This document shows positions 9,235-57,849 of a stretch of DNA of 64,000 nucleotides, one piece after another. The notes beneath the pieces are model-generated. The model made no database searches and was not told where the DNA came from. It saw only the letters and a list, made by a program, of their open reading frames with translations. The position numbers and the translations under genes are program-made. Origin of the DNA: Kiritimatiellia bacterium (GTDB lineage: Bacteria; Verrucomicrobiota; Kiritimatiellia; RFP12; UBA1067); assembly GCA_045656225.1 (NCBI GenBank), contig JAZOQU010000024.1, forward strand, positions 5,790 to 69,789, written 5' to 3'. Position 1 is the stretch's first letter. Every line of letters begins with the position of its first letter.

Positions 9235-9777
9235 TCAATCCTCTGAACGTTTGTAAATACAGATTAAAGTCATGCTACCGCTCATGAAACCCTGCCTGCG
9301 GCTCGGCGAAAAGTTCAACGCCTGCACATCGAATTTGCCTTGATCGGTATTTTGAAGCTCATACAGAAACTTTACAAGAGATTCAACCGCCGCCGTCCAT
9401 TTTATATCGACGGAAATCTTCTGCATGTCTCCGCTCCACTCTTCAACATCCTCCTTGCCGGGCTTGAATTCGGAAACAAAGACATGATTGGACGCGGCGA
9501 TATCCTCAATCGTCCTCATCCATACGGTGTCCGCACCCTGACCTTCGGCAAGAACAGGAATACGAGAGGCTTCCTGCTCGTAAAGCTCATCCCAGTATGC
9601 ACGCTGGGAAATGGTTTTCTGTTCACGCAAGACCTGCTCTTTGGCGGATTTCAACTTTTTCTTTTCGGCAGCCCTTTCGTCTGCCTGCATAAACCACCAC
9701 AGTATGGTGAACACATACAGCAGCAGGATTCCCAAACCCGCGAAAACGGCTTTTTCCTTAAGTGATATGGCAGCCAT
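9235..9777 (-). CDS. GspM/PilO-like bitopic assembly-platform protein
   Basis: 180 aa with a short cytoplasmic N-terminus, one TM (VFAGLGILLLYVFTILWWF), a coiled segment and a small periplasmic domain. Its ATG at 9777 overlaps the upstream stop (TGATG). The position between the L-like gene and the secretin supports the call. Confidence 0.6.
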   Translation of the reverse strand: MAAISLKEKAVFAGLGILLLYVFTILWWFMQADERAAEKKKLKSAKEQVLREQKTISQRAYWDELYEQEASRIPVLAEGQGADTVWMRTIEDIAASNHVFVSEFKPGKEDVEEWSGDMQKISVDIKWTAAVESLVKFLYELQNTDQGKFDVQALNFSPSRRQGFMSGSMTLICIYKRSED

Positions 9778-11039
9778 CAGTATCCTTCCTCTGATTGCTT
9801 AAAGTCACACTCTATGTCAAACGAGGCCTTGGAACCCCTTGTCGTAACACCGCGCGGAAGCTCCACCCGCGTAAAATAGCCCGTTTCGACATCTTCTTCC
9901 TTGCCGCTTATCTGAAAAAGACTGATCGCCGAGAGTTTATCCTTGAAATCATAAACCCGCTGATGATTGCCCGCCTCGGATGTTCCCGTAAAGGTCAAAA
10001 CGTCGCCGCGCTTGAAATTCCAACGCGAAAGCACAAGCCCGTCGGGCATCGCAGAAGCTACGACACGTAAGGTTTCAAGCGCGCCGAGGTCATGATTCGA
10101 AACATTTTGAACGGCCTTTATCTGATCCTTCTTCTTTTGGACCTCGCGATACCGGCCATGATTCCTGTTGACTATGTCCTTCTGTTTCAGGGTTTGACTT
10201 GCGTAATATTTAGGAACACCTATAATTACCGAAAGCATCAAAATCCAAATGCCGACGGCGGCAAGCATGAACTTCTTGAATTTAGACTTGAAACGGGACT
10301 CCTGAAGAACTTCGCTCCATGATTCAGGAAGCGCATTCAGCGACGAGGGATCAAGAGCGCGTTCGGCTATGCCGGCAAGAGGATCGAGTGACGAAGCGTC
10401 AATCATCCTCACCGGGGCAAACATATCAAATCCGGAACAATCAAGACCTTCTCCGACAACAAGAACCTCACTCAACGCCGCCGGCCCCGCGAATGAATCT
10501 GCCTCTACGAGCGACAGCATGATCTCGCGTTTGAAATCGGAATCGGATGAAACGGCGCGGACGACGGACGGGCAATCTCCGTCAAGAACAAACATCGATA
10601 CATTCACCTTGCCGACAATCAAAACCAACCTGCGAAGATCATCCTCGGCTATCCCGAGCTGCGGCCAGGCTACGCGCAATACCCCGAGCGCCAGCGAATC
10701 GACCCGCGTGACATTGATTTTAGCGCTGTCGAGAGCTTCCGCGATATCATCGGCAGACCCCTCGGGAAGCGCCGCAGCAAGAACAATGCGACCGTCCTCC
10801 GTTTCGCGAACCGTTTCGTAGGACACACTAATGCGCTCATCGGGATAAGGAGAGACTTTTTTGAAGATATTGGTCAGATATGAGGCGATATCCTCTTGAA
10901 GATCGTTAGGCACTCTGACGACTTTTACAAGCAAACGATCAAGAGGCAACGCGAGCACCGCCTCGTTGCGCTTATTACCCTTGATCGGGACGCTCAATTC
11001 ACCGTTTTCGAAAACGGCTATTTTTATTTCTTCAGCCAT
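9777..11039 (-). CDS. GspL-like protein (PilM-like cytoplasmic domain + TM + PilN-like periplasmic domain)
   Basis: 420 aa. N-terminal ~230 aa are PilM/GspL-cyto-like (..LALPLDRLLVKVVRVPNDL..VTRVDSLALGVLR..). A central TM follows (FMLAAVGIWILMLSVIIGV), then a periplasmic domain. It is the first gene of the L-M-D block. Confidence 0.65.
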   Translation of the reverse strand: MAEEIKIAVFENGELSVPIKGNKRNEAVLALPLDRLLVKVVRVPNDLQEDIASYLTNIFKKVSPYPDERISVSYETVRETEDGRIVLAAALPEGSADDIAEALDSAKINVTRVDSLALGVLRVAWPQLGIAEDDLRRLVLIVGKVNVSMFVLDGDCPSVVRAVSSDSDFKREIMLSLVEADSFAGPAALSEVLVVGEGLDCSGFDMFAPVRMIDASSLDPLAGIAERALDPSSLNALPESWSEVLQESRFKSKFKKFMLAAVGIWILMLSVIIGVPKYYASQTLKQKDIVNRNHGRYREVQKKKDQIKAVQNVSNHDLGALETLRVVASAMPDGLVLSRWNFKRGDVLTFTGTSEAGNHQRVYDFKDKLSAISLFQISGKEEDVETGYFTRVELPRGVTTRGSKASFDIECDFKQSEEGY

Positions 11040-15466: not shown

Positions 15467-18400
15467 TCATCTCCTTTGTTGTTCTGATATTTTTATTAAA
15501 TCGTCCATTATGCTTTTAAGAACCGCGTCACGCTGACACTCCATACGGCTTACGTTAGGATTGAGCGTATATGCGGTATAAAGCGACTGGATCGCGTTCT
15601 CGCGCTGTTTGGCGGCATTTTGGCATCTGGCAAGTTTGAGCCATAATCTGCAATCCTGGCTTTTGCGCGGAAGGCTGTTTACATACTGACTTATCAGCGC
15701 CGCGGCGGTCTGCGGATCGCGGGATGCCGCGTAATCGAAATATTTATAGGCGGCGGCGTGATACTGAGATCCTCTGTGATGCGCAAGAACCGACCATTCA
15801 AGGAAAAGACGCGGGTCCGGATTTGAGGAGAGCGACGAATAGGCTTCGAGCAGACGCCATGACACGTCGATATTCCCGGCGGAAAGCATGACCGTGATCG
15901 CAAGATGCAGCTTGGACTCGTCTTTTTTGTCGAGGACATAATTGACAAGCTGTGACATCATCTTGACGGCGTCTTCGCGGCGACCAAGCAGAAAATACGA
16001 CTCGGCCAACGCGAACGCATCATCGAAAGACTGAGAACCGCTGCGGAACCTTGCCTCGATTTCTTTAACCACCTCGACATTGTGCAGATATTTTTTAATC
16101 CTGTCCGTTCTAACGTTATTGGGATCAATGTCATCGGTATAAGACATCAGTTCACCGATCACATCAAGCCTCTGCTCGGGGAAAAGGATTTCGCTGACAT
16201 ATCTGAATGTCGCCTCGGGCGAAGCGGGATAAAGCAGATGCGCCTCCCTGAATGCCTGCGCAGCCTCCTGATATTGATACTGCTGACGGTAAAGGCCCGC
16301 GATGGACGCCCTCAGCTTTGAAAAGCTCTTCTGTGCGGCGAAATCACGGCGGTACATCGGATCATTAATCAGCCTTCTCATGTACCAGTCCCAGAAATCG
16401 CCGTCTCTGCGGGCAAGGCTTGGGTCATACGCGGTCTTGTCGGCGTTGATCTTCATTATGAGACCGTGCGGCGACAGATACGGATACATCCAGGGCATCG
16501 CATAACTCTCTTCGATATAGAACGCATGATATTTTCTGTCGTGCTCGTGCATCATCTTGGCGAGCTCGGCGTTTATCTCCATAACCTCCAAAGCGCCCGT
16601 GACCTGAAGCCTCCCGTTTGTCGAGCTGAGCCCCTTGCGGTCGGCGTATCTCTGGAATGCGATCGCGCTGTCCTCTTCGGACGGTATCCAGATTTCGTCG
16701 CCGTAGAGATCGCGCTCGACAGCCATATACGTTCCGTCGGCAAGAGCGTTCTGGGTTATGAGATAGATGTCAGACCTGAAGTTCGCGCCGTAGATCATAT
16801 ACGTCGGGACGAAACGCCCCGGATCTGTTCCTCCGAAGAAAATCGAATACGGCTCCATCGGCGGCGGATAATCGGGATCCGGAAGCGGCTCTTCGTCCGC
16901 GGTGATCTGCGAACGGATCGCGCCGGCGCCGTCGAGCTGATACGCGCCGAACTGCCAACCGAAAGTGTGGCCGTTCTGTTCCGAGCCTCCAAGCTTGAAA
17001 ACGAGCTCGTCGTCGGTGTAATTCTGAACCACCGGCGTCACGCCTGCACCGAGAATCATCGCCAGGACGAGAATCGCGACAACCGTTTTAAGAAGAAAAC
17101 CCTTCACTCCGCTTCTTTTATGAAGAATGAAAACGACCGCCGCGAGAATGACCAGTCCGTAACCGATCCACATCGCGATCATGGCGTGAGACGATATAAA
17201 TTTCACCTTTTGAATAAACCCGTCCTGAATATCACCCTTGACCTGGGCGAGAAGTATGAGCGGAAGAGTCATCATAAAGAAACATGCGCCCGATGCGAGA
17301 AGCCAATGCTGGGACAGGTTGGCGGACTGGAATGACAAGGCCGCCGAAGAGGACGATTTCGCAAAACGCTTTCGCAGCATAAACGGCACAAGCGATACCA
17401 CCGCAGCAAAAACGGAAATCATCAACAACAGCCAGAAGAACACTTTCGCGCTATGCGCCGCCATGGACACATGGAGAGAAACTGCAAAAGCGTCAAGAAG
17501 CAGCACTCCACAGACGGCGAGGACAAGGAACCGTTTTTCGCGGATCTGCACTTTCAAAAAGCGGTAAAAAGCAGTAGCGGGGCGCATGACCAACTGACGG
17601 AAAACTATGATCAGAACGCCTATACCGGCAGGAATCGCCATAACCGCAATAAGCCACCTGTCGAACGCAAGCATTCCCGGCGACGTGCCGATGCCGCACA
17701 TAAGCAGCACCGCACGGACGGCAAGCAAGGCTGCAAGAACCGCACAGACCCAGAGAACATTAAACGACATTCTGCCGCCCGATCGGCGAAACACTACTTT
17801 CCAGCAGGACAGAGGCAACAAAGCAAGCAGAGCGATGAAGTCTGTAAATTGAATTTTAACCTCTGAAAAATAATGGGTCATCTGAATCTTTATCTGAGCC
17901 CAGAATTCTTTGAAACTGCCGAACTCGGGCATTGTTATCGCTTCATACTGACCGCGGGTGATGGCATGTTTAAAGCCGTCCCATGTTCTCGGATATCCCC
18001 AGTTCATGGGAGGATTGCGAAGTTCCGAAACTATCGGCATGTAAGCGTAGAAAGAAACGCCGAGCTGGGTGAAGAAAGCCGAGAGAGCAACCGTTCTGCC
18101 GTTGGGGAGAATCGACCATGCAAGAGCGAGAACAATAAAATTCCAGGCGACCGGCCACCAGAACCACCAGCTTGACGGATGCGTAAGGCCGTTAATGGCG
18201 CCGCGCTCGAGAAGTGCGAACAGAACGATATGGAAGCCCGCGACCGGAATAAAATAGGCAAGACCATTCTTAACCAAATGAGAAACCGCCAAGAAAGCGA
18301 CTATAACGGCATAAAAATAGAATTTGGAACTTCTCCAGTCGAACGCCTCTCCGGCATATCCGTTTGCATCGGCGAAGTCGACGGAAAAGAAGACGACTTG

Positions 18401-19621
18401 CAGGGCCATAAACACGCAACACGCGGAGACGGCGAGAAAAACATGGTAAAGCATAGGTTTCTCATCCCTCTTTACAACCGCGAATACGGCAGAAAGGACG
18501 CTTGCGATCACAAAAAAGGCCGCAAAAAGATATATCCTCGGATTAACGAGCGGTGCGGTTATGTCCGCCGCCCCCTTTTCTCCGGTCATAAAATCAATTT
18601 TATCGACAACCCAACTGACATCTGATGACAAAAATCCGATCCCGGCCAAAAAAAGAAGAATTAAAGAGAGAGCCGAAAAAACGTAAAAAGATATCCTGCC
18701 CGAAGAACTGTACTTCCGGGACACATCCGAGGATTGCGCCTTCTTAATCATATACACGCCGAAAAGAAGCGCGACCACGGCGCAAATTATGGCGGAAACG
18801 ATAATGACGGTCGAAGGACACGAATCAACCGCCTTTAGCGCATCATGTTTGTTGATGACGTCGCTTTGCATGTACCTGTTGGCTTGAGGCATCTCACCAA
18901 TCTTTAAAACCTGATAGGTAAGCGCAACAGGGAAGAAATACAATACGAAGTCCCGGAAGAGGCTGAAATTCTTAAGGCAGATCATAATTCCTATCGGAAC
19001 GATCGCAAAAAGCAAAACCTGATAGTTCGTCAGACCCAATCCGAATACGAAAGCCGTAAACCACAGCGTTTTGTCGGACGGCCGGCACATCCACTTGTAC
19101 GAAAGCAGAAACACGAGCATCAGAAACAGCGAGTTGAGCGAATATATCTCGACGATCGTCGATTGGGACCATTCGACCGGAGAAAAGGCAAACGCCAGAG
19201 CGCCTCCCACACCGCCGGCAAAAGAAAACCAGTCCGCGGACCTGGAGTCCTTATCCGAAAAAAGAGAATCGCTTTTCCTGTTGAAAATAAAATCAGCGGA
19301 ACTGCGACTTATCAGCATAGCCGTACAACCGGCGGCCAAGGCCCCGAAAACCGCCGAGCAGCAACTGACGGCCCACGCTGGATTCGGATGCCCCATATAC
19401 GTGACAAAGGAGAATATCTTGCAGAAAATCCATGTGCAGAAAGTCCAGAACGGATATCCCGGAGGATGGGGGACGCCGAGGTGGGCGCTCGCCGTCGCCA
19501 GTTCGCCGGAATCCTCAAGACCTACGGAAGGACCGAGTGTGTAGAAATAAACCCCGAAGGAGACAAGCGTGGCGACCCAGAATGCAGCCCAGTCAAACTT
19601 AGTAAAGAAATTTTTTTTCAT
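15467..19621 (-). CDS. DUF2723 (TMEM260-like, GT-C-type) polytopic membrane protein with C-terminal TPR-like region, 1384 aa
   Basis: The N-terminus ..YFYTLGPSVGLEDSGELATASAHLGVPHPPGYPFWT.. is typical of DUF2723. More than 20 hydrophobic helices follow. The last ~350 aa are helical-repeat/TPR-like. The ATG at 19621 lies 7 nt after the tadB/C-like stop. Confidence 0.8.
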   Translation of the reverse strand: MKKNFFTKFDWAAFWVATLVSFGVYFYTLGPSVGLEDSGELATASAHLGVPHPPGYPFWTFCTWIFCKIFSFVTYMGHPNPAWAVSCCSAVFGALAAGCTAMLISRSSADFIFNRKSDSLFSDKDSRSADWFSFAGGVGGALAFAFSPVEWSQSTIVEIYSLNSLFLMLVFLLSYKWMCRPSDKTLWFTAFVFGLGLTNYQVLLFAIVPIGIMICLKNFSLFRDFVLYFFPVALTYQVLKIGEMPQANRYMQSDVINKHDALKAVDSCPSTVIIVSAIICAVVALLFGVYMIKKAQSSDVSRKYSSSGRISFYVFSALSLILLFLAGIGFLSSDVSWVVDKIDFMTGEKGAADITAPLVNPRIYLFAAFFVIASVLSAVFAVVKRDEKPMLYHVFLAVSACCVFMALQVVFFSVDFADANGYAGEAFDWRSSKFYFYAVIVAFLAVSHLVKNGLAYFIPVAGFHIVLFALLERGAINGLTHPSSWWFWWPVAWNFIVLALAWSILPNGRTVALSAFFTQLGVSFYAYMPIVSELRNPPMNWGYPRTWDGFKHAITRGQYEAITMPEFGSFKEFWAQIKIQMTHYFSEVKIQFTDFIALLALLPLSCWKVVFRRSGGRMSFNVLWVCAVLAALLAVRAVLLMCGIGTSPGMLAFDRWLIAVMAIPAGIGVLIIVFRQLVMRPATAFYRFLKVQIREKRFLVLAVCGVLLLDAFAVSLHVSMAAHSAKVFFWLLLMISVFAAVVSLVPFMLRKRFAKSSSSAALSFQSANLSQHWLLASGACFFMMTLPLILLAQVKGDIQDGFIQKVKFISSHAMIAMWIGYGLVILAAVVFILHKRSGVKGFLLKTVVAILVLAMILGAGVTPVVQNYTDDELVFKLGGSEQNGHTFGWQFGAYQLDGAGAIRSQITADEEPLPDPDYPPPMEPYSIFFGGTDPGRFVPTYMIYGANFRSDIYLITQNALADGTYMAVERDLYGDEIWIPSEEDSAIAFQRYADRKGLSSTNGRLQVTGALEVMEINAELAKMMHEHDRKYHAFYIEESYAMPWMYPYLSPHGLIMKINADKTAYDPSLARRDGDFWDWYMRRLINDPMYRRDFAAQKSFSKLRASIAGLYRQQYQYQEAAQAFREAHLLYPASPEATFRYVSEILFPEQRLDVIGELMSYTDDIDPNNVRTDRIKKYLHNVEVVKEIEARFRSGSQSFDDAFALAESYFLLGRREDAVKMMSQLVNYVLDKKDESKLHLAITVMLSAGNIDVSWRLLEAYSSLSSNPDPRLFLEWSVLAHHRGSQYHAAAYKYFDYAASRDPQTAAALISQYVNSLPRKSQDCRLWLKLARCQNAAKQRENAIQSLYTAYTLNPNVSRMECQRDAVLKSIMDDLIKISEQQRR

Positions 19622-19628
19622 GTATTTG

Positions 19629-20306
19629 TCAAACGTCGATTTTTGTAATTTTTCTTATCACCAACCATCCGGCCGTTATCAGCAGAACAACAACTAAACA
19701 GGAAACGATGCCGGTAAAACTGCAAAGGAAAGGAATCATCATTTCAGGCTTCATGATCACCATGGCGATCCCTAAAAGAAACGGCATGGCTGAAACGAGA
19801 ATACCCTGCATGCGCCCCTGGGCGGTCAACGTTTTGACCTTGCGTTCTATTTTCATTCTTCCGCGGATGGTTTCCGAAATCTTATCGAAGATCTCCGTAA
19901 CGTTGCCGCCGGTCTTGCGGCTGATGAGAATCGCCGTTGTGACAAGCGTCAAATCGTCAGAGCCGACGCGGTCGGACATGGACTGGAGCGCCGCCTCGAA
20001 GGTCATTCCGATTCTGAGCTGCTGCTGAAGAATCGCGAACTCCTCACTCATGGGTTTTTCACCCTGGCTGACGACGGAATCAAACGCCTGAGAGATTGAA
20101 AATCCCGCTCTGAGCGCGTTTGACATCGTGGCGAGAGCTTCCGGTAGCTGTTCATTGAATTTGCGCCGGCGCCGGTTGTCAAGCCATCTGGCGATCGGCC
20201 CCTGGCCGTTCTGCCATCCCTGCTTGACTTTGATTCCCGCGAGAAAATACCACACAATCCCGCCGATAGAGACACCGAAAAGAATTACAGACAACCACAC
20301 TTCCAT
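19629..20306 (-). CDS. Tad/Flp pilus platform protein (single T2SSF domain, TadB/TadC-like)
   Basis: 225 aa with an N-terminal TM, then ..LPEALATMSNALRAGFSISQAF..ILISRKTGGNVTEIFDKISETIRGR.. and C-terminal TMs. Confidence 0.8.
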   Translation of the reverse strand: MEVWLSVILFGVSIGGIVWYFLAGIKVKQGWQNGQGPIARWLDNRRRRKFNEQLPEALATMSNALRAGFSISQAFDSVVSQGEKPMSEEFAILQQQLRIGMTFEAALQSMSDRVGSDDLTLVTTAILISRKTGGNVTEIFDKISETIRGRMKIERKVKTLTAQGRMQGILVSAMPFLLGIAMVIMKPEMMIPFLCSFTGIVSCLVVVLLITAGWLVIRKITKIDV

Positions 20307-20320
20307 AAATCCGCCTTTCG

Positions 20321-22018
20321 TCAGCCCCTGTACGTTATACTCACATCGGCATCGGAAGCAGGGTCAAACATACGCGTATCGACTTTAACACCCCGCCCGG
20401 CGAGCTGATCGAGCCAGGTCGGGATAGCCCCGGTAGGCTTAAATTCGCCAAGCACCTTGCCGTTCTCGCCCACCCCCGTCTGATTGAAGGCGAAGATGTC
20501 CTGCATCACGATCTGATTGCCTTCAAGTCCGGTAACCTCGGTTATGGCAACGACCTTGCGCGAGCCGTCCGAAAGACGCGACTCGTGAATGATGATGTCC
20601 ACCGCGCTCGCGATCTGTTCGCGGATAGCCTTCGACGGGAGTTCCATGCCGCTCATCATAACCATCGTCTCAAGACGCGAAATGACGTCACGCGGCGAGT
20701 TGGCGTGGACGGTCGTGAGAGAGCCGTCGTGACCGGTGTTCATCGCCTGAAGCATGTCAAGAGCTTCGCCGGAACGGCATTCGCCCACGATAATGCGGTC
20801 GGGACGCATTCTCAGACAGTTCTTCACGAGGTCGCGGATCGTCACCGCGCCCTTGCCCTCGATGTTCGGCGGCCTCGCCTCGAGACGGACTACATGAGGC
20901 TGCTGAAGCCTCAGTTCGGCCGCGTCTTCAACCGTGACGATACGTTCCGTCCGCGGAATATATCCGGAAAGAAGATTCAAAAGAGTCGTTTTGCCCGAGC
21001 CCGTGCCGCCGGCGACGATGATGTTTTTTCTGAGCGTCACGCAAAGCTTCATAAACTCCGCCGCGTTGTGCGTCCAGGTTCCGAATCTGATGAAATCCTC
21101 GGGCGTAAGAGCGCTCTTGGAGAATTTTCGGATCGTGATGGTCGGCCCCGAAAGCGCTAAAGGCGCGATGATCGCGTTGACGCGGCTGCCGTCGGCGAGA
21201 CGCGCGTCGACATACGGCTGCGACTCGTCGATACGGCGGCCGAGAGGAGAGACGATGCGTTCAATTACCGCAAGAACGCTCGCATCGTCGGTAAACTGAC
21301 AATCGGAGAGCACGAGCTTTCCTTTACGCTCAACATACACCTTGCGAGGGCCGTTGACCATGATTTCGCTGACGGAATCGTCGGCAAGAAGTTCTTCAAG
21401 CGGGCCTAAGCGCATCGCCTCGTTGAAGACGTCGTCCTCGAGACGGACGGTGTCGATGCCGTCAGGAAGACGTCCGTTGGAAACGACCTCGTCGATGATC
21501 TGACGGATCTTCACCCTCGCGGTATCCTCAAGCCCTTCACGGTCCACGCCGTCAAGAGTGAGCCGTTTCATATCCATACGCTTAAGAAGCTCGTTCTGTA
21601 TCTGCTCCTGGACATTGCGCCTCAACTCACGCATGGGATCGGATTCAGCCTCTTCAAACTCCGGAGTTTCAACATCCTGAACGGCCTCTTCCTCTTGCGC
21701 ATCTCCCGAAAAAACATCGTCGACGGCATTTTCGGCATCGGAAACCCGAAATATATCGTCTCCCACCTGAACGACCATATCGCCGGTCAGCAACACCGCT
21801 CCGTCGACCGGCGCGCCGTTGACGTATGTGCCGTTTGCGCTATTGAGGTCTTCAAGGACCGCTTTGCCGTCCCTGACGGTCAAAACGGCGTGGCGCTCGC
21901 TGACGGAAGGATGCGTAAAACGTATACGGCAGTTTTCGCCGCGCCCGATTATCCATGTTCCATCAAAAAGTTCGCGCTTCTCGGGAAACCCATTCACCAC
22001 GGTGGTCAAATAAAGCAT
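20321..22018 (-). CDS. cpaF: FHA-domain fused to a CpaF/TadA-type secretion ATPase
   Basis: N-terminal FHA domain ([47 protein letters not shown]), then an acidic linker, then a CpaF-like core with Walker [17 protein letters not shown] and ..[33 protein letters not shown]... Confidence 0.9.
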
Positions 22019-22036
22019 GGCCGACGCCCCTCAGAT

Positions 22037-22849
22037 TTATCGCGTTTTGTTCTTGCCGAGATTGCGCTCGCGGTTGAGCTCGACAATCTGTTCGCGGATT
22101 CTCTCAAACTCGATGACCGGAAGCTCCTTCTCCGTGAAGATGTCGTTCTTGTTGCGCAGAGTAAGCGTAAGACGGCCTTTGGTCTGTTCGGCGACGGCAA
22201 GCATCTCGGCCTCGCGGGGAGTCACGAGAAGCGTGACGGTCGTATATCCAGACGACTGCGCTCCAAGGCTCCTGACGCGCATTTTCGCGGTTTCGTCGCC
22301 GACCGCGAGAACCGTTATCTTCTGAAGAACGGTCACCGTAGCGAGATCGCCGCGCTTGTTCTTTCCTTCGTCGCTCGGGAACGTGAACGTACCGATAACA
22401 TCGACCTCGTCACCCGCACGGATCATACCGGAAACAGACGCCGAACCGGTAACATTGATCGACATTGCGCGATAGCCCTGCTTTATCGCGACGGCAAGAC
22501 CGTCATCGCGCTGATAACCTTCGATATCGGTCTTGCGGACGGGAACTTTCGCCTTGACGTTGGCAATCAGACGACGCCCATAAAGCGACGGGATCTCTTC
22601 CTTTGTGTAAACGGCGCCCTCGTTGCCGCGACGAAACGTTTTGCACGTTGAAATGTCCTCGGGATTGATAACGCTGCCTTTAGTCTTGTCGCTCACAAAG
22701 CAGACTGCCGTCATTTCGCCATACTTGCGCTTCATGGCGGCTTCCTTCTCTTTGAGCTCCGCGTTCTTGCCGCTGATATAGGTACTTGTCAAAAGAGCGG
22801 CGATAAGACCCGCGACGAGGCTCGCGATAAGAACAATCTGACGCTTCAT
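22037..22849 (-). CDS. cpaB: Flp pilus assembly protein CpaB/RcpC
   Basis: N-terminal TM, then SAF/RcpC-like sequence (..GYRAMSINVTGSASVSGMIRAGDEVDVIGTF..VTLLVTPREAEMLAVAEQTKGRLTLTLRN..). The ATG is 1 nt after the fhs stop. Confidence 0.8.
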   Translation of the reverse strand: MKRQIVLIASLVAGLIAALLTSTYISGKNAELKEKEAAMKRKYGEMTAVCFVSDKTKGSVINPEDISTCKTFRRGNEGAVYTKEEIPSLYGRRLIANVKAKVPVRKTDIEGYQRDDGLAVAIKQGYRAMSINVTGSASVSGMIRAGDEVDVIGTFTFPSDEGKNKRGDLATVTVLQKITVLAVGDETAKMRVRSLGAQSSGYTTVTLLVTPREAEMLAVAEQTKGRLTLTLRNKNDIFTEKELPVIEFERIREQIVELNRERNLGKNKTR

Positions 22850-27732: not shown

Positions 27733-27738
27733 AAAAAC

Positions 27739-44795: not shown

Positions 44796-45395
44796 TCAGG
44801 CGCGGAGAATGCCGAGTTCGTATGCGCGGCCTACTGCGGACGTGGCGTTGGGGCATCCTAATTTGTTCATGATGCCTTTAAGATGCGTTTTTACAGACTC
44901 CGATCCTATACCCAACAACGATGCGATCCGGTCTCGCTGATGACCTTGCGAAACAAGACGTAAAACATCCATCTCCCGAACCGTCAGCAACGACGGAGCC
45001 GACTGGAAAAGCTCGGATGCGAACGACTCTTCGCCGGAAGCGACTGATTTTATTACGGATGACAGTCTATCTTGATCGACATCCTTTGGCAGATACCCTT
45101 TCGCGCCGTCAGCTTTCGCCCGGGACTCCTCTTCTTTGAGCGGCATCCCGGCAAGGAACACGACTTTGATGTCGGGGACGAGTTTTTTAAGATGCTCAAG
45201 CATTGTAAACCCGTCCATCTTAGGCATTCTGATATCGCTCAGCACGACATCCGCCTTGGCACGGGGGATTACGTCAAGAGCGTCTTCACCGTTAGATACA
45301 AGTGCGACGACGTTAAACGACCCTTCGCTCGCGAGCATCGCTTCAAGGCCCTCTCGGACCATGGGATGATCGTCAACTATAGCGACGTTCAGCAT
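44796..45395 (-). CDS. NarL/FixJ-family response regulator (REC + LuxR HTH)
   Basis: ..VAIVDDHPMV.., ..VVLSDIRMPKMDG.. and a C-terminal ..LTVREMDVLRLVSQGHQRDRIASLLGIGSESVKTHLKGIMNKL... The ATG is 1 nt after the upstream pseudopilin stop. Confidence 0.9.
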   Translation of the reverse strand: MLNVAIVDDHPMVREGLEAMLASEGSFNVVALVSNGEDALDVIPRAKADVVLSDIRMPKMDGFTMLEHLKKLVPDIKVVFLAGMPLKEEESRAKADGAKGYLPKDVDQDRLSSVIKSVASGEESFASELFQSAPSLLTVREMDVLRLVSQGHQRDRIASLLGIGSESVKTHLKGIMNKLGCPNATSAVGRAYELGILRA

Positions 45396-46341: not shown

Positions 46342-49300
46342 TCAATCAAACTGTCTGTAGAAAAGAACGCGTGTTTTATGAGGCGTATTGTTGTTCTTGG
46401 TCCTGGTGGGATCACGCCAGACGAGAGCCATCGCCCTTCCGCCGAGCTGGGGCGGAGTATGCCCCGCCGCTCCGCTGCCCATCATCATCGGCTCGGCGCG
46501 GACAAACACGAGGAAAAGCTGCTGCTTGACGGCAAAGCACTCCTTCCAGAAACCGTAAAGATACTTTTTGTCGGCGTCCCAGAGTTTCAGGTCAGAATTC
46601 AAGTCAAAGCCGCAAAGCCGAGTTCCCTTATCGCTGCCATTATCGCGCCACCCCATGTTCTCGCGCCAGACTTCCTCCCAGCTCTTGTTTGAGCCGTTCC
46701 TTCTCACTTCGTCCATAAACCTGCCGGCAATCTGATTTAGAACATTCCATTCTATTTTAGCGGTCTCCGAATACGCGTTGAAAGCATATTTCTTATTGAA
46801 ATCATCCATGTTCATCGAACTGAAATCAACGCCTGAATCCGTTACATTCGTCGAGGTGCATCTCCAGTCAAGCGGCGTATTGGCAAAAACAGACATCATG
46901 ACATTCGTTGAATCGGAATACGGATTCACTTTAAACCCTGTACCTTCGTTCACGAACGGCAGTTTAGAGAACGCCTCCCAATCTCGTTCAAACGGATCGT
47001 AGGTTCTCCATGCGATTTCATTATTTCTCGTTTCTTCAAACGTATTGGCGATATTTACATATTTAGACTGGGTTGAAGAATCTATCTTCATATTTGTCGG
47101 CTTACTGCTGCCTTCTCTTTTAAGCGTGTTAAAACGCGGCAGAAACGCGAATTCATAAACGCTTTGCAGGTATCCGGCATCGCTCGTCGCCATAAAGATG
47201 TCTTTGTCGCGATCTCCTTCTCCCGTCTTATTGTTAGCAAGCCATGTCTGCTCATCCAACGCTCCACCGGTAAAAGCGAACCACTCTTCAGGCGCGTGAT
47301 TGTGACGGGGATCCGCCACTATCGCGGCGCTCGGCTCAAGCTTGAAATCAAGCTCGGCATTGTTGGACGCCATCTCTTCGATCCTATCAAGAGAGAAATT
47401 AAAATTAACGCCGGTATTAAATCTGAGAACGGGAAACGGCTGATCGCCAAAGAGGGTGCGCCAGCGTTTCGCCTGAGCGATTTTAGAATTATTCTGAATC
47501 TCGTCATCTTCCAGGCAAGCGGGAACCATATCGACGATATTCTCATCCTTATCCTTAATACGGAGCCAGAACGCACAGTTCAAGTTTATGTTCACACCGC
47601 TCTGGATAATGTTTTTTAGCGCCTCGCTATTCTCAAAACGGTCATCCTTCTGACCGTTGGATTTAAACGGCTTGAAGGCAGTATGCGCTGAATGTATATA
47701 TGTGATGTTTTTATCCTTCTCAACCTTCTCGAAAGACGGAGACCAGACGGTTATTCCGTTTTGATCTTCTCTGTGCTGAGTCCAGCGGTATACGACTTTC
47801 AATAAAGCATTGTCGTCAAGCGCCAATGCCGTAGCTATCCGCTGGGCCTCTGTGCCTATTCTGGAATCAAACTTCTTTACCGCATCTGCTTCCTGCTTGA
47901 TTTCCCCGTATGTAACCTGACCGGGGAATGACAGCTTGAAGTTGATCATACCGTTATCGGAATCAATCGCAGTAGTTTCAATTTCTTTCTTCCCGAGACG
48001 AAGTTCGCCTTGCGCTGATCCCGTTCTGAGCGCCATCTGTTCAGAAGCGAAAAAGAAACTCATCCTGCCGTCAATCTGATAACTGCCGTCGTTCTCATCC
48101 TTGCGGGAAAACGGGAAAACCGTCAAAGCCCTCAATGTCGCGCTCTGAAAGCCCTGCGCAAATTTTGCGGCGTCTATCTTGTACAAAACGGTCTTTTCGA
48201 CTTCACGGGTATTTTCCGATTCAGTAATGACCTTCTCGCCGTTTTCGGGATCGAATTTTTTAGTAACGGCGAATTTCAGATCGCTGATCATCGGATGAAT
48301 ACCGCACACCATAGGAACTCGCTCTAACGTAGGCGTAGCCAACGACAGCGGAACGCGGTTTGCGTCAAGATAATCGTAAAGCGATACGCATCCCAATGTG
48401 CTGAGCACATAGGGCCATTCATTTTTAGCTTTGCCCTGAAGGTTGTTCGCCTCGATTGTCAACGCAAAAGCGTTCGGATTGACATCCTTGGCCGACAATT
48501 CCTTGACATCGAAAGGTTGACTGTCGGCATCCGCCAGATCATACGTTTCTTCAGAAGCGTTTTGGTTGCCGGATGAACCGGAAGCGGCGGCAGAGGACGT
48601 TTTCGTTCTCGTCTTAGGGAAAAGGCCGTCCGTCACGAACGTCATGCGAGAGACCATGTCGTCCGCCGCCTCGTTGCCGTTTTTCCCGAGATCATAAAAA
48701 CCGTCCCTGGACCCCGTCGATTTGATATATTCGACAAACGGACTTTTCATCTTGCCTATGGATCCTTTTTGACCCAAGGCGAGATTGAAATCGGCCACCG
48801 AAATCAGAGGATACTTGGATTGAAAGGATATCTCTTTAGTCTTCGAATCGACATCCCTGAACTGCTCCATGAACGTATCCCACTGACTCGCGCCGGAACC
48901 GCTTCCGGTATGCTTCGCGCCGTCTTCAAAAATATACGAGAGCGAAACTCTCTGATTGGATGCCGATGTCCGGCGCTGATTGGCGAACATTCTGTTTACA
49001 TCAAAATAATCTGATACGTCAAGCACGCAGAAAGCATAACGCCCGACGTCAAAGTCAAAGGCCTTCCACTCGGCAGTCGGAGATAACCTGGAATAATACC
49101 GTGCCTCGTTCACAAGCGTCGGCGGAATGTACGCAAGGGCCTCGAGACAGAGGGGTGAAACCGTTTTATCCCACCTTACGCTGGGTTCACCCGGCTCCTG
49201 CCAGTTGTTTACGCCCACAAGAACACGGTTTCGCCATTCGTTATGCAGCTTACCGTCAGTCGACAAGTTCCCCACGCCCGGATGAGGGTTGTTGTTTACG

Positions 49301-49500
49301 GCACGATCAAGCGAATCTATCGCCTCGGCCATTGCCGCTTTGACAAGCTGACGGCTGGAGGCGCTGCGCCTTAAATAACTCGACGGAAGTCTCGAATAAC
49401 GCATGTACGCCGAAAACGCAACGGCGGAAATGATGAGAAACCCCAGCATTCCTATGACGATAAGAAGCGCACTGCCCTTTTTGGTTTTAAACTGTCTCAT
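46342..49500 (-). CDS. Giant GspK-like minor pseudopilin, 1052 aa
   Basis: N-terminus MRQFKTKKGSALLIVIGMLGFLIISAVAFSAY (GspK-type, no FTLxE) and a GspK-like ..GRYAFCVLDVSDYFDVNRMF.. segment. ATGA overlap with the upstream gene. It occupies the K position in F-G-H-I-J-K order. Confidence 0.65.
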   Translation of the reverse strand: MRQFKTKKGSALLIVIGMLGFLIISAVAFSAYMRYSRLPSSYLRRSASSRQLVKAAMAEAIDSLDRAVNNNPHPGVGNLSTDGKLHNEWRNRVLVGVNNWQEPGEPSVRWDKTVSPLCLEALAYIPPTLVNEARYYSRLSPTAEWKAFDFDVGRYAFCVLDVSDYFDVNRMFANQRRTSASNQRVSLSYIFEDGAKHTGSGSGASQWDTFMEQFRDVDSKTKEISFQSKYPLISVADFNLALGQKGSIGKMKSPFVEYIKSTGSRDGFYDLGKNGNEAADDMVSRMTFVTDGLFPKTRTKTSSAAASGSSGNQNASEETYDLADADSQPFDVKELSAKDVNPNAFALTIEANNLQGKAKNEWPYVLSTLGCVSLYDYLDANRVPLSLATPTLERVPMVCGIHPMISDLKFAVTKKFDPENGEKVITESENTREVEKTVLYKIDAAKFAQGFQSATLRALTVFPFSRKDENDGSYQIDGRMSFFFASEQMALRTGSAQGELRLGKKEIETTAIDSDNGMINFKLSFPGQVTYGEIKQEADAVKKFDSRIGTEAQRIATALALDDNALLKVVYRWTQHREDQNGITVWSPSFEKVEKDKNITYIHSAHTAFKPFKSNGQKDDRFENSEALKNIIQSGVNINLNCAFWLRIKDKDENIVDMVPACLEDDEIQNNSKIAQAKRWRTLFGDQPFPVLRFNTGVNFNFSLDRIEEMASNNAELDFKLEPSAAIVADPRHNHAPEEWFAFTGGALDEQTWLANNKTGEGDRDKDIFMATSDAGYLQSVYEFAFLPRFNTLKREGSSKPTNMKIDSSTQSKYVNIANTFEETRNNEIAWRTYDPFERDWEAFSKLPFVNEGTGFKVNPYSDSTNVMMSVFANTPLDWRCTSTNVTDSGVDFSSMNMDDFNKKYAFNAYSETAKIEWNVLNQIAGRFMDEVRRNGSNKSWEEVWRENMGWRDNGSDKGTRLCGFDLNSDLKLWDADKKYLYGFWKECFAVKQQLFLVFVRAEPMMMGSGAAGHTPPQLGGRAMALVWRDPTRTKNNNTPHKTRVLFYRQFD

Positions 49501-52996: not shown

Positions 52997-54178
52997 TTAA
53001 TTGCTGAGATGGATAATATCGTCGCTTACCCATTTGCCGACGCATTCGTTCGCCTTGGATTCAAGAGTTTTCCTGTCGATCCACGGCGGGAAAGTCCGAC
53101 CGTTGGGACCTGCGCTCCACAACGTATAACGTTGATACGGGGCCGGGGAATAGTAATAAAAATCATTGTTCCACCCGTCGCGTACCGTAATGCCGTCAAG
53201 AACATACTGGTTGGAAGCGCTGCCTGTAGTCGAAAAAATCTCGATGTTCACGTTGTCCGCATCAAGAGTGGTGCCGCCGCCGTCCTTGATATCAACCCCG
53301 AAAAGAACGAAGTTGTCCGGGCGGTTGACGCGGCAGATGTTTTTAAGATTGGGAATCCATCTCGCGCAAACGGCCTGAGAAGGTATGTTCGCCACACTCG
53401 CATAGTTCATCGACCCCTCGTTGCCTACCGCGGTACGATCCTTAATGCCTTGCCAACCGCCGTAGGTTTCAAAAGATTTCCCCGTAAACGGATCGCACGG
53501 CATCACATTGTTCCCGGTCCATTGCGCGTATTCTTCGAAAAATTCGCTGGGGCCGTTCATCATGACAAGATATCTCGGCAGCAGATAGCTGAGCAGACCG
53601 AACTTGAAAAGCTGCAGATTGCGCCAGTCGATTTTATCTTTGAGCGAAGTGAAACGGCCGAGGTTGCTCGTTCCGTCATCAAACCCGGCCATGAACCTGG
53701 CCTTTCGGTCCTCATTCTCAAAATAGGCTTTAAAATCCTCGTCGTTGGATGACGCGCGGCGCTTTATCTCTTCGGAAACAGACTCCACCAGGTCTTCGTA
53801 ACCGGGAGGAAACGGGAAGCGGCAATCGATCGGCTGAGCTTTGCAGGCGGCAGCAACCTGATCCCATGCGCGCGACTCGTTCACCTCGCCGATCTTCGTC
53901 CAATTCCAGATATTCTCGTTTACATCATCGTTTTGGATGCCGTGTTCGTCCACCGCGGCGTAAATATCCCTCGAGCCGTGCGTCTTCACGGGGGGGTAGC
54001 TGCCGAAAGCGGCGTAATACCCCGAAAGACAGTTCTCAAGTTTCTGCAGACGCATAATGGTGACAGTCCTTTTATGGGAGTCGGAGCCTACAGACGTTAT
54101 TCTGAAGACAAGCCCCATCAGGATCGCCATCACGGCGATGACAATCATAAGCTCGATTAACGTAAACGCTTTTTTCAT
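52997..54178 (-). CDS. GspG-like major pseudopilin candidate with a ~250-aa insertion, 393 aa
   Basis: MKKAFTLIELMIVIAVMAILMGLV leader. G-like ..LQKLENCLSGYYAAFGSYPPV.. after the helix, and G-like C-terminus ..DGWNNDFYYYSPAPYQRYTLWSAGPNGRTFPPW... It is the first gene after gspF. Confidence 0.7.
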   Translation of the reverse strand: MKKAFTLIELMIVIAVMAILMGLVFRITSVGSDSHKRTVTIMRLQKLENCLSGYYAAFGSYPPVKTHGSRDIYAAVDEHGIQNDDVNENIWNWTKIGEVNESRAWDQVAAACKAQPIDCRFPFPPGYEDLVESVSEEIKRRASSNDEDFKAYFENEDRKARFMAGFDDGTSNLGRFTSLKDKIDWRNLQLFKFGLLSYLLPRYLVMMNGPSEFFEEYAQWTGNNVMPCDPFTGKSFETYGGWQGIKDRTAVGNEGSMNYASVANIPSQAVCARWIPNLKNICRVNRPDNFVLFGVDIKDGGGTTLDADNVNIEIFSTTGSASNQYVLDGITVRDGWNNDFYYYSPAPYQRYTLWSAGPNGRTFPPWIDRKTLESKANECVGKWVSDDIIHLSN

Positions 54179-54188
54179 TGAGACGCCC

Positions 54189-55514
54189 TTACATGGATCC
54201 GGACCCGCCGGAAACAGAAGAAATGATCTTGATCATCGGCAGGAACATGGCGACGACGATGGTACCGACGATTACCGCCAGCACGATGATGAGAGCGGGC
54301 TCGATCGCCGCGGTCATGCCGGCGACGGCGTTATCGACTTCATCATCGTATGTGTCGGCGATGCGGGTAAGCATCTCGGCGAGAGCGCCCGTCTCTTCGC
54401 CGACCTCGACCATCGAAATCACCATCGGGGGGAACACCCAGCATTGGGAGAGCGGCTGCGTGACGCCCTCGCCTTCCTTTACCGCGTCATGAACGGACTG
54501 GATCGCTTTGGCGATGACGCGGTTGCCCGACGTCTCGCGGACGATGACGAGCGCCTGCAGAATCGGCACGCCCGAAGAAAGAAGCGTTCCAAGCGTTCTC
54601 GTGAGACGGGAAACGGCCGTTCGCTGCACAAGCGTACCCGTGACAGGCATACGCAATTTCAACACATCGAAAATATATGCGCCCCTCTCGGTCTTGCCGA
54701 GCAGTTTAAGAAGAACGATCACGCCGATGAAAATCACGGCAACCGTCAGACCGTTGTGCTGGACATACTCGGACATGTCTATGACGAACTGCGTCACCGA
54801 CGGAAGAGCCTCTCCACCGAGCATGTCATTGAACACCTGCTTGAATTTCGGAATGACCGTAACGAGCAGGAACGCTGTAATGCCGACGGCGGCGACGAGA
54901 ACGACAATGGGATAAATCATCGCGCCCTTCACCTTGTTCTTGATTTTGTCCGCCTTCTCGGCAAACTCGGCCAAACGGGCCAGAACAACTTCAAGAACAC
55001 CGCCCGCTTCGCCGGCCTTTACCATGTTGATATAGAGATTGTCGAAGATCTTGGGATAGGCCGTAAGCGATTCGGAAAAGGTTCCGCCGGCGGAAATCGT
55101 CTCAGATATGCCCTCAAGAGCCTCACGCAGCTGAGCGTCCTTCATCTGGCGCTTCAACACGTCGATACTGCGCATCAAAGGAAGCCCGGCATTGACGAGC
55201 GTTGCGAGCTGACGGGTGAACTGGGTCAGGATCTTGGTCTTGATCCTGCCCTGAAGAAACTTGGGCAACCTGATGTTGATCTCCATATTAAGCCCCGTCT
55301 TCTTCTTGCCGCCGGACGGCGAAGGGGGCCCTTTCCTGTTTGTCTTCTTCTGAGCAACAGAGGAGGAAGAAGAAGAGCGGACCTCGCCCATAGCTGTGGG
55401 CAAAAGCCCCATCGCGCGCACCGCCGCGATAGCCGCGGTGCGGTCAGCCGCTTCAACCTGTCCGCGGGTTTCATTACCTTCAGCATCTTTCGCTATATAC
55501 TGGAATGTCGCCAT
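54189..55514 (-). CDS. gspF: Type II secretion / type IV pilus platform protein GspF/PilC
   Basis: 441 aa with two T2SSF repeats (..FTRQLATLVNAGLPLMRSIDVL.. and ..LTRTLGTLLSSGVPILQALVIV..). There is a basic/S-rich insert near the N-terminus. Confidence 0.9.
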   Translation of the reverse strand: MATFQYIAKDAEGNETRGQVEAADRTAAIAAVRAMGLLPTAMGEVRSSSSSSVAQKKTNRKGPPSPSGGKKKTGLNMEINIRLPKFLQGRIKTKILTQFTRQLATLVNAGLPLMRSIDVLKRQMKDAQLREALEGISETISAGGTFSESLTAYPKIFDNLYINMVKAGEAGGVLEVVLARLAEFAEKADKIKNKVKGAMIYPIVVLVAAVGITAFLLVTVIPKFKQVFNDMLGGEALPSVTQFVIDMSEYVQHNGLTVAVIFIGVIVLLKLLGKTERGAYIFDVLKLRMPVTGTLVQRTAVSRLTRTLGTLLSSGVPILQALVIVRETSGNRVIAKAIQSVHDAVKEGEGVTQPLSQCWVFPPMVISMVEVGEETGALAEMLTRIADTYDDEVDNAVAGMTAAIEPALIIVLAVIVGTIVVAMFLPMIKIISSVSGGSGSM

Positions 55515-55644: not shown

Positions 55645-55971
55645 TCACAGCGGAGGGATTTTCATATTAGGTATATGAACCTCTTCTTTGACGTCGATGC
55701 GCGAGGATCCGAATATGTACTCGGCCGCCATCGGAGAGACGGTAACCGTATCGTGCTTTGACGAAGATGAATACGACTCGTCGCCGCCCATTGACGTGAG
55801 AGCCGCACGGCCCGCCTTTGCGCGGACGTCGCGGGACATATTCAGCGACGAAACTATATAGTGGAGAAACGCGAACAGGGCGGCAAGAATCAACGCAAGG
55901 CAAAAGAGCCCGAGCGCGAGCTCGACAAGCGCCTGCGCACGACGGAACGTTGAACGCCTCTCAGTGTCCAT
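55645..55971 (-). CDS. TadE-like minor Flp pseudopilin, 108 aa
   Basis: The start is taken at ATG 55971 (MDTERRSTFRRAQALVELALGLFCLALILAALF). It overlaps the TadG-like stop by 11 nt. The track ORF to 56217 is an upstream extension inside the neighbouring gene. Confidence 0.65.
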   Translation of the reverse strand: MDTERRSTFRRAQALVELALGLFCLALILAALFAFLHYIVSSLNMSRDVRAKAGRAALTSMGGDESYSSSSKHDTVTVSPMAAEYIFGSSRIDVKEEVHIPNMKIPPL

Positions 55972-57379: not shown

Positions 57380-57849
57380 CAGAACCCCGCATCATACATG
57401 TAAAACGGGAAATGAGATTCCACCTGGGCGTTTCCCTCCACCGTAAAATCCCGTGTCGACATTTCAACTCGGGCCTCGGCAACCGGAGCCGTACCCATTC
57501 CGGATTGAACATCAACGTCCGTAGTATGCCAATATTCGTATTCAAGAATGGCGTTGGCACGGGGAGGGTTTTCGCTCGCAAGATATATCGGCACGCGTGA
57601 AACTTCGTCAATTCCCCGATCTGTAGGCCAAAGACGCTTGCCCGCGACAGGGATAATCGCCGCGCGAGCCGACTTTCTGCACATGAAATCATTAAACCCG
57701 ACGGCCTTGGCGCGTGCGGCGCGCGCGGCGCCGTAATCAAGAAGCGTGCGCGCGGCAAGTTTGCGGGAAAGCGTAAACGCCGTCGTGAATATCAGCATAA
57801 TCACGAGTACGGCGATCAGCGTCTCGACCATAGCCTGGGCACGCTTCAT
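57379..57849 (-). CDS. TadE-like minor Flp pseudopilin, 156 aa
   Basis: MKRAQAMVETLIAVLVIMLIFTTAF N-terminus. Confidence 0.7.
   Translation of the reverse strand: MKRAQAMVETLIAVLVIMLIFTTAFTLSRKLAARTLLDYGAARAARAKAVGFNDFMCRKSARAAIIPVAGKRLWPTDRGIDEVSRVPIYLASENPPRANAILEYEYWHTTDVDVQSGMGTAPVAEARVEMSTRDFTVEGNAQVESHFPFYMYDAGF

Follow-up and report, generated by a model that had tools for sequence, protein, structure and literature searches.

A family of giant putative tip pseudopilins distantly related to GspK in Kiritimatiellae

Tip pilins of the PilK/GspK class carry a small sheet that is completed by a terminal strand. In type IVa pili this strand is donated in trans by PilC/PilY1 (Ellison et al., PNAS 2026, PMC13533445). 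It is supplied in cis in GspK of type II secretion systems (T2SS) and in CpaL/TadG, and CpaL holds a middle region of ~470 residues between its pilin-like domain and the returning strand (PMC13533445). Recognition of the K subunit by the I-J pair reportedly follows once its sheet is complete, and this licenses polymerisation (PMC13533445). Large insertions ahead of the donor strand have also been described in the PilK homologs of Thermus (ComZ) and of the V. cholerae competence pilus, and the middle region of CpaL is dispensable for assembly and thought to carry a function (PMC13533445). In the Kil (Tad) pili of Myxococcus, target specificity is set by interchangeable Tips, in which the large pilin KilN has an exposed domain that varies (PMC12075869). 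In this study, we analyzed a giant protein of 1052 residues encoded in a 64,000-nucleotide stretch of DNA (hereafter the window) from a Kiritimatiellia bacterium (GenBank assembly GCA_045656225.1, contig JAZOQU010000024.1, positions 5,790 to 69,789 of the forward strand), together with its homologs, hereafter the giant family.

We propose that this protein is probably the capping or initiating minor pseudopilin, of the GspK/PilK class, of a T2SS-like type IV filament machine in gut or rumen Kiritimatiellae. Proteins of this kind, namely large tip pilins and PilK homologs that carry insertions, are already known. What is new is the insertion of ~750 residues in two pieces, giving 3.2 times the size of GspK; a confidently predicted module that appears to have no relative in the PDB or BFVD; the replacement of the central region as a cassette at the population level; and, judging from homology searches, the restriction to Kiritimatiellae of a family that counts more than 1000 unannotated proteins.

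Relationship to GspK and architecture of the pilin core

The gene starts at an ATG located 7 nt downstream of a GGAGGAG Shine-Dalgarno sequence and overlapping, as ATGA, the stop codon of the preceding 175-residue pseudopilin gene. This bears out the translational coupling proposed in a preliminary description of this DNA, made from the letters alone. The N-terminus of the product, MRQFKTKKG/SALLIVIGMLGFLIISAVAF (the slash marks the predicted cleavage site), combines a positively charged leader, a glycine at position -1 and a hydrophobic stretch, as in a class III (prepilin) signal. The same description had correctly remarked that the FTLxE leader is lacking, as in GspK proteins: position +5 is isoleucine and not glutamate (KKG/SALLIVIGML..). 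E. coli GspK and P. aeruginosa XcpX likewise have G-1 and no Glu+5, with G/VALLIV in GspK for G/SALLIV here. Residues G9, S10 and A11 are invariant across the giant family (47-100 homologs). Since GspK of E. coli K-12 has 327 residues, the early estimate of about three times the size of a normal tip pseudopilin was also right.

A profile of the giant family was aligned with hhalign to 44 GspK sequences built from homologs of E. coli GspK. Residues 6-181 matched GspK positions 3-115 (93.4%, E 2.4e-7), and the first 200 residues alone reached 95.1% against the GspK profile. The alignment jumps a family-specific loop (~76-135) and sets GRYAFtAIDVSDyFDVNRL on G.v....DlqxCFNLNAL of GspK, column for column; G153, D164, D167 and N169 are invariant or nearly so in the giant family. 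A resemblance of this segment to the DeqgkfNlN region of GspK had been noted by eye, and the column-for-column placement of residues 153-171 on the GspK consensus in a profile-profile alignment makes it more than an impression. As a control, the N-terminal profile scored <=12% against GspG, GspH, GspI and GspJ of E. coli and against the profiles of the operon's own pseudopilins, which argues for a K-specific signal and not for a generic pilin helix. At the level of sequence profiles, these comparisons establish the first ~180 residues as specifically homologous to GspK and support the giant protein as a distant but specific GspK relative.

A second, shorter likeness lies further along. The invariant D376-Y-L-D379..P384 (LYDYLDANRVP here, LYDYLDxDxVP in the family) was aligned over 15 columns (residues 372-386) with iaDWIDxDxxP of GspK (146-160; E 6.7e-4, probability 27%), and PMVCG follows collinearly on PyVCvL of GspK (hhalign). 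This is possibly a remnant of the GspK alpha-domain. The poorly conserved residues 179-355 (insertion A), which gave no hhalign signal with GspK apart from the motif after them, may correspond to the initial part of that domain. The GAED..Y..PPYR/helix-hairpin-helix part of the GspK alpha-domain is absent from the giant protein.

The full-length AlphaFold2 (AF2) model had a predicted local distance difference test score (pLDDT) of 83.6 and a predicted template modelling score (pTM) of 0.83. It contains a long N-terminal helix (10-68) broken at 33-45, a strand at 153-161, helix and coil over ~180-395, a beta-rich part (397-745), a mixed part (746-990) and strands at 994-1004, 1021-1029 and 1043-1051, the last of which ends one residue before the C-terminus (..HKTRVLFYRQFD). 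Conservation is highest in the blocks 1-75, 126-175, 376-400 and 976-1052 (entropy ~0.8-1.4 bits), with H1041, R1044 and L1046 invariant in the family. Entropy is ~1.1 bits in the core, 2.3 bits in insertion A and ~2.7-3.1 bits in residues 403-971 (insertion B), and the least conserved residues of the protein are 401-725 (~3 bits).

Mean-field direct coupling analysis (DCA) was done on 329 family sequences (effective number, Neff, 226), covering residues 1-180, 356-411 and 956-1052. The strongest of the 53,986 pairs was 61-1043 (z=23), and further couplings joined 68-996 (z=12.6), 53-1021 (10.4), 73-991 (10.1), 118-1051 (7.5), 64-998 (6.1) and 57-1045 (5.3). Six of the 18 strongest couplings (z=23 to 6) connect helix 53-73 and residue 118 to residues 991-1051; residues 356-402 and 166-178 are likewise tied to helix 972-986. 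The helix face 53/57/61/64/68 therefore packs on the C-terminal beta-meander, the arrangement that defines the pilin fold. Because the C-terminal strands pack on the N-terminal helix, the ~750 residues of insertions A and B lie inside the pilin fold and are not appended to it. Statistical and predicted evidence together show a discontinuous pilin core made of residues 1-178, 356-402 and 972-1052, and the DCA couplings and the AF2 strand 1043-1051 support a terminal strand that completes the K sheet. The extra mass had been placed in residues ~250-1052, behind an N-terminal GspK domain. This did not hold, as residues ~972-1052 belong to the core by DCA and the extra residues are 179-355 and 403-971.

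The giant protein is like GspK in alpha1 and in the first strand carrying the D....FN.N.L motif, both of them homologous, in an insertion inside the pilin sheet, in a C-terminal strand supplied in cis, and in being the last large gene of the pseudopilin run after GspF. It is unlike GspK in its size, in failing all curated models and Foldseek, in the missing helix-hairpin-helix, and in having a second, ~570-residue beta-rich insertion, a hypervariable recombining centre and a GspG-like upstream neighbour. With CpaL/TadG, ComZ and the V. cholerae PilK homologs it shares an N-terminal pilin-like domain, a long middle and a returning extreme C-terminal strand. Unlike in CpaL/TadG, the core is GspK-like, the insertion amounts to ~750 residues in two pieces (~470 in CpaL), and there is no von Willebrand factor A (vWA), beta-solenoid or other known domain. 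No match to the Tad/TadG N-terminus (Pfam PF13400) was found in the giant protein or in 47 members of the family, so that the topology alone is shared.

Of 5.8 billion proteins covered by a word-indexed search, 751 matched, and the few named ones among them are a 'hypothetical protein' of Kiritimatiellae metagenome-assembled genomes (MAGs). The best 120 of these 751 are all 1023-1101 residues long, with 99-100% query cover and 44-100% identity. When 1.84 billion cluster representatives were searched exhaustively with a profile, 1124 proteins were retrieved at E<=1e-3, of which 419 reached E<=1e-30; nearly all members of the family measure 950-1190 residues. Relatives (the closest 60% identical) are encoded in 270 matched stretches of a one-genome-per-species collection, and nearly all their hosts are MAGs from ruminant, horse, primate and human gut, labelled Kiritimatiellae or, loosely, Verrucomicrobia/Lentisphaerae. 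A survey of sizes, suggested in the preliminary description, showed that the giant size is family-wide (937-1193 residues, median 1049, in 329 full-length members).

Insertion B and allelic replacement of the central region

When insertion B was modelled alone with its homolog alignment, AF2 gave a pLDDT of 91.1 and a pTM of 0.90; in prediction, it behaves as a module that folds confidently by itself. Foldseek had been recommended for the extra residues and revealed no structural relative in the PDB or BFVD. For residues 403-971 the best PDB match was spurious (E 0.022, prob 0.03, template modelling score (TM) <0.1), as was the best BFVD match of the full model (E 0.023, prob 0.05). All Foldseek matches of the full model and of the fragment had TM<0.2 and root-mean-square deviations of 18-45 A, and were regarded as spurious. 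Within the scope of these two databases, the modelled insertion B thus appears to have no detectable structural relative.

The impression that ~800 residues carry no recognisable motif was confirmed, as no Pfam or NCBIfam family matched the rest of the protein; for insertion B this applies to the window protein and to 47 diverse members. Segment-against-segment hhalign found no internal repeats or propeller blades in the insertions. Insertion B nevertheless contains three invariant polar clusters, VDxVPAxxxDD (656-666), DPRxNxAPExW (730-740) and SDxGYLQSxxE (773-783).

The central region of the protein is exchanged between closely related genomes. The window protein and its homolog P0014, encoded at locus L083 of another metagenome, are 99% identical at both core ends, whereas insertion B shows 52% identity. 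The DNA of the window and L083 shares 98-100% identity over 49943 to ~48680 and again over ~46577 to 44973, with an abrupt fall to 40-72% between ~48623 and ~47000 (from 100% to 48% at ~48623, with recovery at ~46997). A second pair behaves in the same way: locus L084 (40-kb contig) and locus L011 (59-kb contig) are 93-100% identical over nearly all of the 17 kb compared, and 49-61% identical across ~2 kb inside the giant gene. Three contigs, drawn from ENA and NCBI, yielded the L084 allele. Besides the giant gene, the sole notable dip between L084 and L011 lies at 7166-7700 (76-88%), in the ~190-residue and ~290-residue pseudopilin genes, with short dips near 2467, 3363 and 15131; the 7166-7700 dip might be a second variable spot that covaries with the tip module.

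The same pattern was seen across the family. Among the 190 protein pairs with cores at least 97% identical, 26 have modules less than 70% identical, and 10 of 37 lineages (defined by cores at least 96% identical) hold two module types. Module and core point to incongruent nearest relatives: for the P0014 module the best match (83%) comes from a lineage whose core is only 85% identical. The genes around the giant gene are far better conserved than it is; at locus L003 they are 78-93% identical, against 60% for the giant protein. A tblastn search of the window found no silent copies of the variable region of the kind known from the Neisseria pilS model.

These data show rapid divergence of the central region (~250/300 to 835/900, including part of insertion A, residues 356-402 and most of insertion B) and its replacement through recombination between near-identical genomes. 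Sharp allelic replacement in near-identical genomes is a pattern of adhesins and phage receptors. The pattern here is probably that of an exposed specificity determinant replaced by homologous recombination; both the speed of divergence and the exchange of alleles are consistent with a display module that is exposed. The alternative module alleles are paralleled by the Myxococcus Tips with their variable exposed domain (PMC12075869), although those tips are paralogous clusters in one genome, whereas the variation here is allelic between strains.

Operon and other genes of the window

The operon begins with GspF, followed by pseudopilins of ~393, 212, 191, 281, 179, 162 and 175 residues, the giant gene, a 302-residue pseudopilin and often a LuxR-type response regulator (Table 1). 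This order is kept in 75-80 of 80 genome loci and is limited only by contig ends; the 302-residue pseudopilin is kept downstream in 61 of the 80. The giant gene had been assigned to the K position. It does end a run of seven pseudopilin genes after GspF, but its upstream neighbour is GspG-like and not a recognisable GspJ, and a further pseudopilin gene lies downstream.

Of all operon proteins, only the 175-residue neighbour can be aligned to GspG from end to end (98.1% against E. coli GspG over 130 columns by hhalign; NCBIfam GspG at the N-terminus, E 2.4e-13). Its true start is likely M22 (MKSIKRG/FTLMEML), 21 codons inside the mechanical open reading frame (ORF), which shortens the overlap with the 162-residue gene from 77 to ~14 nt. 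For the 393-residue first pseudopilin (52997-54178, minus strand), the Pfam T2SSG match covers only residues 323-361 and the NCBIfam GspG match residues 4-63; because the two matches are so confined, this protein may be GspG-like with a ~260-residue insertion of its own. Its family keeps this size (median 395 residues). No GspI or GspJ could be assigned among the operon pseudopilins, as hhalign against single E. coli sequences and per-member NCBIfam scans gave matches of the N-terminal helix only. The 162-residue protein, for example, matches GspJ over 33 N-terminal columns only (hhalign), and its NCBIfam matches mainly concern the generic helix. Two loci of the 179-residue family contain in-frame stops.

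Several pseudopilins recall the Verru_Chthon cassette (proteins A-D: TIGR02600, TIGR02598, TIGR02599 and TIGR02596), an uncharacterised cassette of the Planctomycetes-Verrucomicrobia-Chlamydiae clade, with weak N-terminal matches; our literature search found no paper on it. Protein C is matched by the 162-residue neighbour in 40 of 40 members (best E 1e-5) and protein B by the 179-residue neighbour (E 2.8e-4), and several neighbours match protein D. None of these scores comes near its curated cut-off, and wherever the matched region is known, it does not extend beyond the prepilin helix. We rejected the giant protein as Verru_Chthon protein A, since three of 47 members match TIGR02600, at E>=0.055, and the window protein is not among them.

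The response regulator follows the operon in L001, in L084 and in at least 30 of the 80 loci, which suggests a link between the filament genes and a two-component signal. Next to the window's response regulator gene, no kinase was seen. The MAG SRR873601_bin.89 holds two operon copies on different contigs, L019 (CAMOCC010000100) and L026 (CAMOCC010000016), whose giant proteins are 45% and 41% identical to that of the window; these could be paralogous operons or reflect a mixed bin.

The GspF gene cannot be used to type the machine as T2SS or type IV pilus, as the NCBIfam models PilC (392 bits) and GspF (386 bits) score alike. No GspE/PilB-type ATPase and no prepilin peptidase were found among the window ORFs scanned, and the only ATPase of the window belongs to the Tad-like cluster. 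Tad-type genes also lie upstream of GspF, an arrangement found in only one of 80 related loci. Here, a third small ORF (region 55645-57849, minus strand) with the internal start MDTERRSTFRRAQALVELALGLF.. has a TadE-like look, and the TadG-like protein belongs with CpaL, the other PilK analog known to have a large middle region. Degradation of sulfated glycans is a known lifestyle of Kiritimatiellae, with which the glycoside hydrolase (GH) and sulfatase genes of the window agree; a filament for secretion or adhesion could plausibly have their products as its cargo or its context.

Table 1. Positions of the giant gene, its parts and other genes in the window
Feature	Position	Strand	Remarks
Giant GspK/PilK-class pseudopilin gene (putative)	46342..49500	-	1052 residues; stop codon 46342-46344; from ORF list, full-length homologs and AF2 model
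Residues 1-68	49297..49500	-	Class III signal KKG/SALLI, hydrophobic alpha1-N, amphipathic alpha1-C; helices 10-36 and 41-68
Residues 69-178	48967..49296	-	First part of pilin head, including strand 153-161; hhalign, conserved block 126-175
Motif, residues 153-171, GRYAFCVLDVSDYFDVNRM	48988..49044	-	GspK-type D....FN.N.L motif
Insertion A, residues 179-355	48436..48966	-	Mostly helix/coil, poorly conserved; low-confidence loop 300-316
Residues 356-402	48295..48435	-	Conserved helix and linker with LYDYLDANRVP and ERVPMVCG; DCA contacts to 972-986
Insertion B, residues 403-971	46588..48294	-	Beta-rich 403-745, mixed 746-971; most variable part of the protein
Residues 972-1052	46345..46587	-	Helix 975-986 and three-strand beta-meander; most conserved block of the protein
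Main segment with divergent allele, residues ~293-835	47000..48623	-	Window vs L083
Second, small divergent patch, residues ~914-954	46640-46760	-	Window vs L083
GspG-like pseudopilin, 175 residues	49497..50024	-	Upstream of and coupled to the giant gene; hhalign, NCBIfam
Six further pseudopilin genes, 393/212/191/281/179/162 residues	49948..54178	-	All with prepilin signal and Glu+5; Pfam N_methyl and NCBIfam matches
GspF/PilC platform protein	54189..55514	-	First operon gene; Pfam T2SSF E 8.6e-63
Downstream pseudopilin, 302 residues	45397..46305	-	Own Shine-Dalgarno; 36 nt after the giant gene
NarL/LuxR-type response regulator	44796..45395	-	After the operon; Pfam Response_reg and GerE
TadG-like protein, 472 residues	55961..57379	-	Pfam Tad E 1.9e-6
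TadE-like protein, 156 residues	57379..57849	-	Directly upstream of the GspF region; Pfam TadE E 0.0018
Tad/Flp-like cluster	15467-22849	-	RcpC/CpaB 22037..22849; TadA/CpaF-type ATPase with forkhead-associated (FHA) domain 20321..22018; single-domain TadB/C-like 19629..20306
1384-residue protein after Tad cluster	15467..19621	-	TMEM260-like O-mannosyltransferase domain and tetratricopeptide (TPR) repeats
Secretin, 935 residues	6411-11039 region	-	GspD 325 bits vs PilQ 157 bits; 37 kb from the operon
420-residue protein	9777..11039	-	Weak PilM-like match; near the secretin, far from the operon
GH2 beta-mannosidase-like, GH92 alpha-mannosidase and sulfatase genes	25489-29883 and 58337-59959	+	

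Proposed role at the filament tip and alternatives

As a minor pseudopilin of the GspK/PilK class, the protein would be cleaved by a prepilin peptidase after G9, and its extreme C-terminal strand would close the sheet in cis, as in T2SS GspK and CpaL/TadG (PMC13533445). Neighbouring minor pseudopilins would then dock and start filament assembly, and a filament of GspG-like subunits would grow beneath. This would leave the ~115-kDa protein at the filament apex, carrying both insertions there and displaying insertion B. From the homology to GspK and the pattern of variation, we infer that the tip is its location. The module is most likely a determinant of strain-specific recognition or adhesion, in which case the central region would be the recognition element, under diversifying selection by ligands, phages or host immunity. 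The exposed, variable domain of KilN in Myxococcus is a functional precedent (PMC12075869).

The size of ~115 kDa and the variability also suggest, by analogy, a functional equivalent of PilK and PilY1/PilC in one chain. Like the tip adhesins PilY1/PilC and MshQ (type IVa and mannose-sensitive haemagglutinin pili), which are of ~115 kDa and bring a large non-pilin module to the tip via a C-terminal beta-strand on the PilK sheet, the giant protein would be expected to act in adhesion or recognition and in the licensing of assembly. In the PilY1/PilC systems the adhesin is separate and its strand is given in trans, whereas pilin core and module form one polypeptide here. No PilY1 beta-propeller (Pfam PF05567) or vWA was found in 47 members, and no PilY1 structure was among the Foldseek matches listed for the whole protein or for residues 403-971. 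A pilin module with an extra structured module behind a class III signal is also found in the modular type IV pilins PilB and PilC of S. sanguinis (PMC8179133), although their module is grafted at the C-terminus, while that of the giant protein is inserted and its C-terminus belongs to the core. A fuller version of this proposal can be put forward only tentatively: the filament may be surface-exposed, with a cap that fuses a PilK initiator and a PilY1-like adhesin, and its ~570-residue module, of a fold without relatives in the PDB or BFVD, may be an exchangeable specificity cassette that homologous recombination moves between strains and lineages under pressure from glycan or host ligands, tip-binding phages or host antibodies.

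Several observations weigh against a GspK-class tip pseudopilin. In hhalign comparisons nothing is GspK-like beyond residue ~400, the segments 390-740, 720-990 and 950-1052 being blank. The Pfam models T2SSK (PF03934) and T2SSK_1st (PF21687) matched neither the window protein nor 47 diverse members. The NCBIfam GspK model (NF037980) gave weak scores in 39 of the 47 members (10-22 bits against a cut-off of 130; best E 7e-5) and did not match the window protein itself. These matches always join residues ~4-60 to profile positions 2-60, the N-terminal helix only. A BLASTP comparison of the N-terminal 267 residues with E. coli GspK was not significant, and a search of PDB sequence profiles with the family alignment gave noise only (apolipophorin, E 0.09). 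Foldseek retrieved no GspK, XcpX or any other pilin with the full model or with the 403-971 fragment; for the full model against the PDB, the best E was 0.15 and no pilin was among the 50 matches listed. We consider this a weak negative, because the discontinuous core and the 570-residue insertion may exceed what a local aligner can follow. The relation of the N-terminal region to GspK, for which the preliminary description had demanded structural similarity, is supported by the profile match of residues 6-181 (93-95%) and not by a GspK structure among Foldseek results. In addition, no GspE, GspL/M/C or prepilin peptidase lies beside the operon in the window, the gene just upstream of the giant gene is GspG-like, and neither hhalign nor NCBIfam found equivalents of GspI and GspJ. 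The boundaries between core and insertions rest on coevolution, secondary structure and conservation, and all evidence for mosaic alleles comes from metagenome assemblies.

Among the alternatives, a periplasmic T2SS pseudopilus cap survives best, though we consider it unlikely. The filament would then stay in the periplasm, and the module would dock cargo or gate the secretin. The secretin of the window indeed scores better as GspD than as PilQ, the N-terminal homology is to a T2SS protein, the region encodes many glycan enzymes of secreted type (sulfatase, GH2, GH92), and completion by a strand in cis is the solution of T2SS GspK (PMC13533445). However, the GspF/PilC platform is not typable and the secretin gene is distant from the operon. 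Furthermore, the exchange of 50% divergent alleles between 97-100% identical genomes is not expected of a periplasmic cap, since it would be shielded from phages and host immunity.

Slightly less probable again is a bitopic inner-membrane protein that uses a GspK-like helix as its anchor, such as a platform or periplasmic accessory or an anchored enzyme, and that never enters the filament. Curated GspK models indeed match the hydrophobic N-terminal helix only, Foldseek retrieves no pilin structure, and in an operon without recognisable GspL/M/C some gene might fill such a role. Against this, the hhalign match runs past the helix to the motif at 153-171 and is K-specific, G-1 is invariant, and the amphipathic helix coevolves with the C-terminal beta-meander, as in the pilin fold. 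A hypervariable recombining module would also be unusual for an internal part of the machine, all the more as GspF and the pseudopilins stay conserved.

An artefact, in which a frameshift or misassembly fused genes (a possibility raised early on) or chimeric assembly produced the mosaic alleles, is very improbable: although the window and all relatives are metagenome-derived and L083 is a short 5-kb contig, fusion is excluded by hundreds of independent full-length homologs (950-1190 residues) from different projects and assemblers, by the conserved operon order and by N-/C-terminal coevolution, which makes sense only in one polypeptide, while allelic replacement also occurs between the 40-kb and 59-kb contigs, with 4-10 kb of 93-100% identical flanks on each side, and one of these two alleles was recovered on three contigs.

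The tips of type IV filaments decide what is bound and when assembly starts. Addition of a terminal beta-strand to the PilK sheet, in trans from PilY1 or in cis, has been proposed to license assembly in many systems (PMC13533445). The giant family would be an extreme natural case of completion in cis, with ~750 residues placed between the sheet and the strands that close it, in a phylum for which we know of no experimental filament biology. Insertion B is a candidate for a new fold or a ligand-binding scaffold. More than 1000 'hypothetical' proteins could, on the basis of their sequences, be annotated as GspK-class tip pseudopilins, and the allelic replacement of their central region offers a handle on the strain-level ecology (attachment, phage predation, host immunity) of abundant uncultured glycan-degrading gut bacteria.

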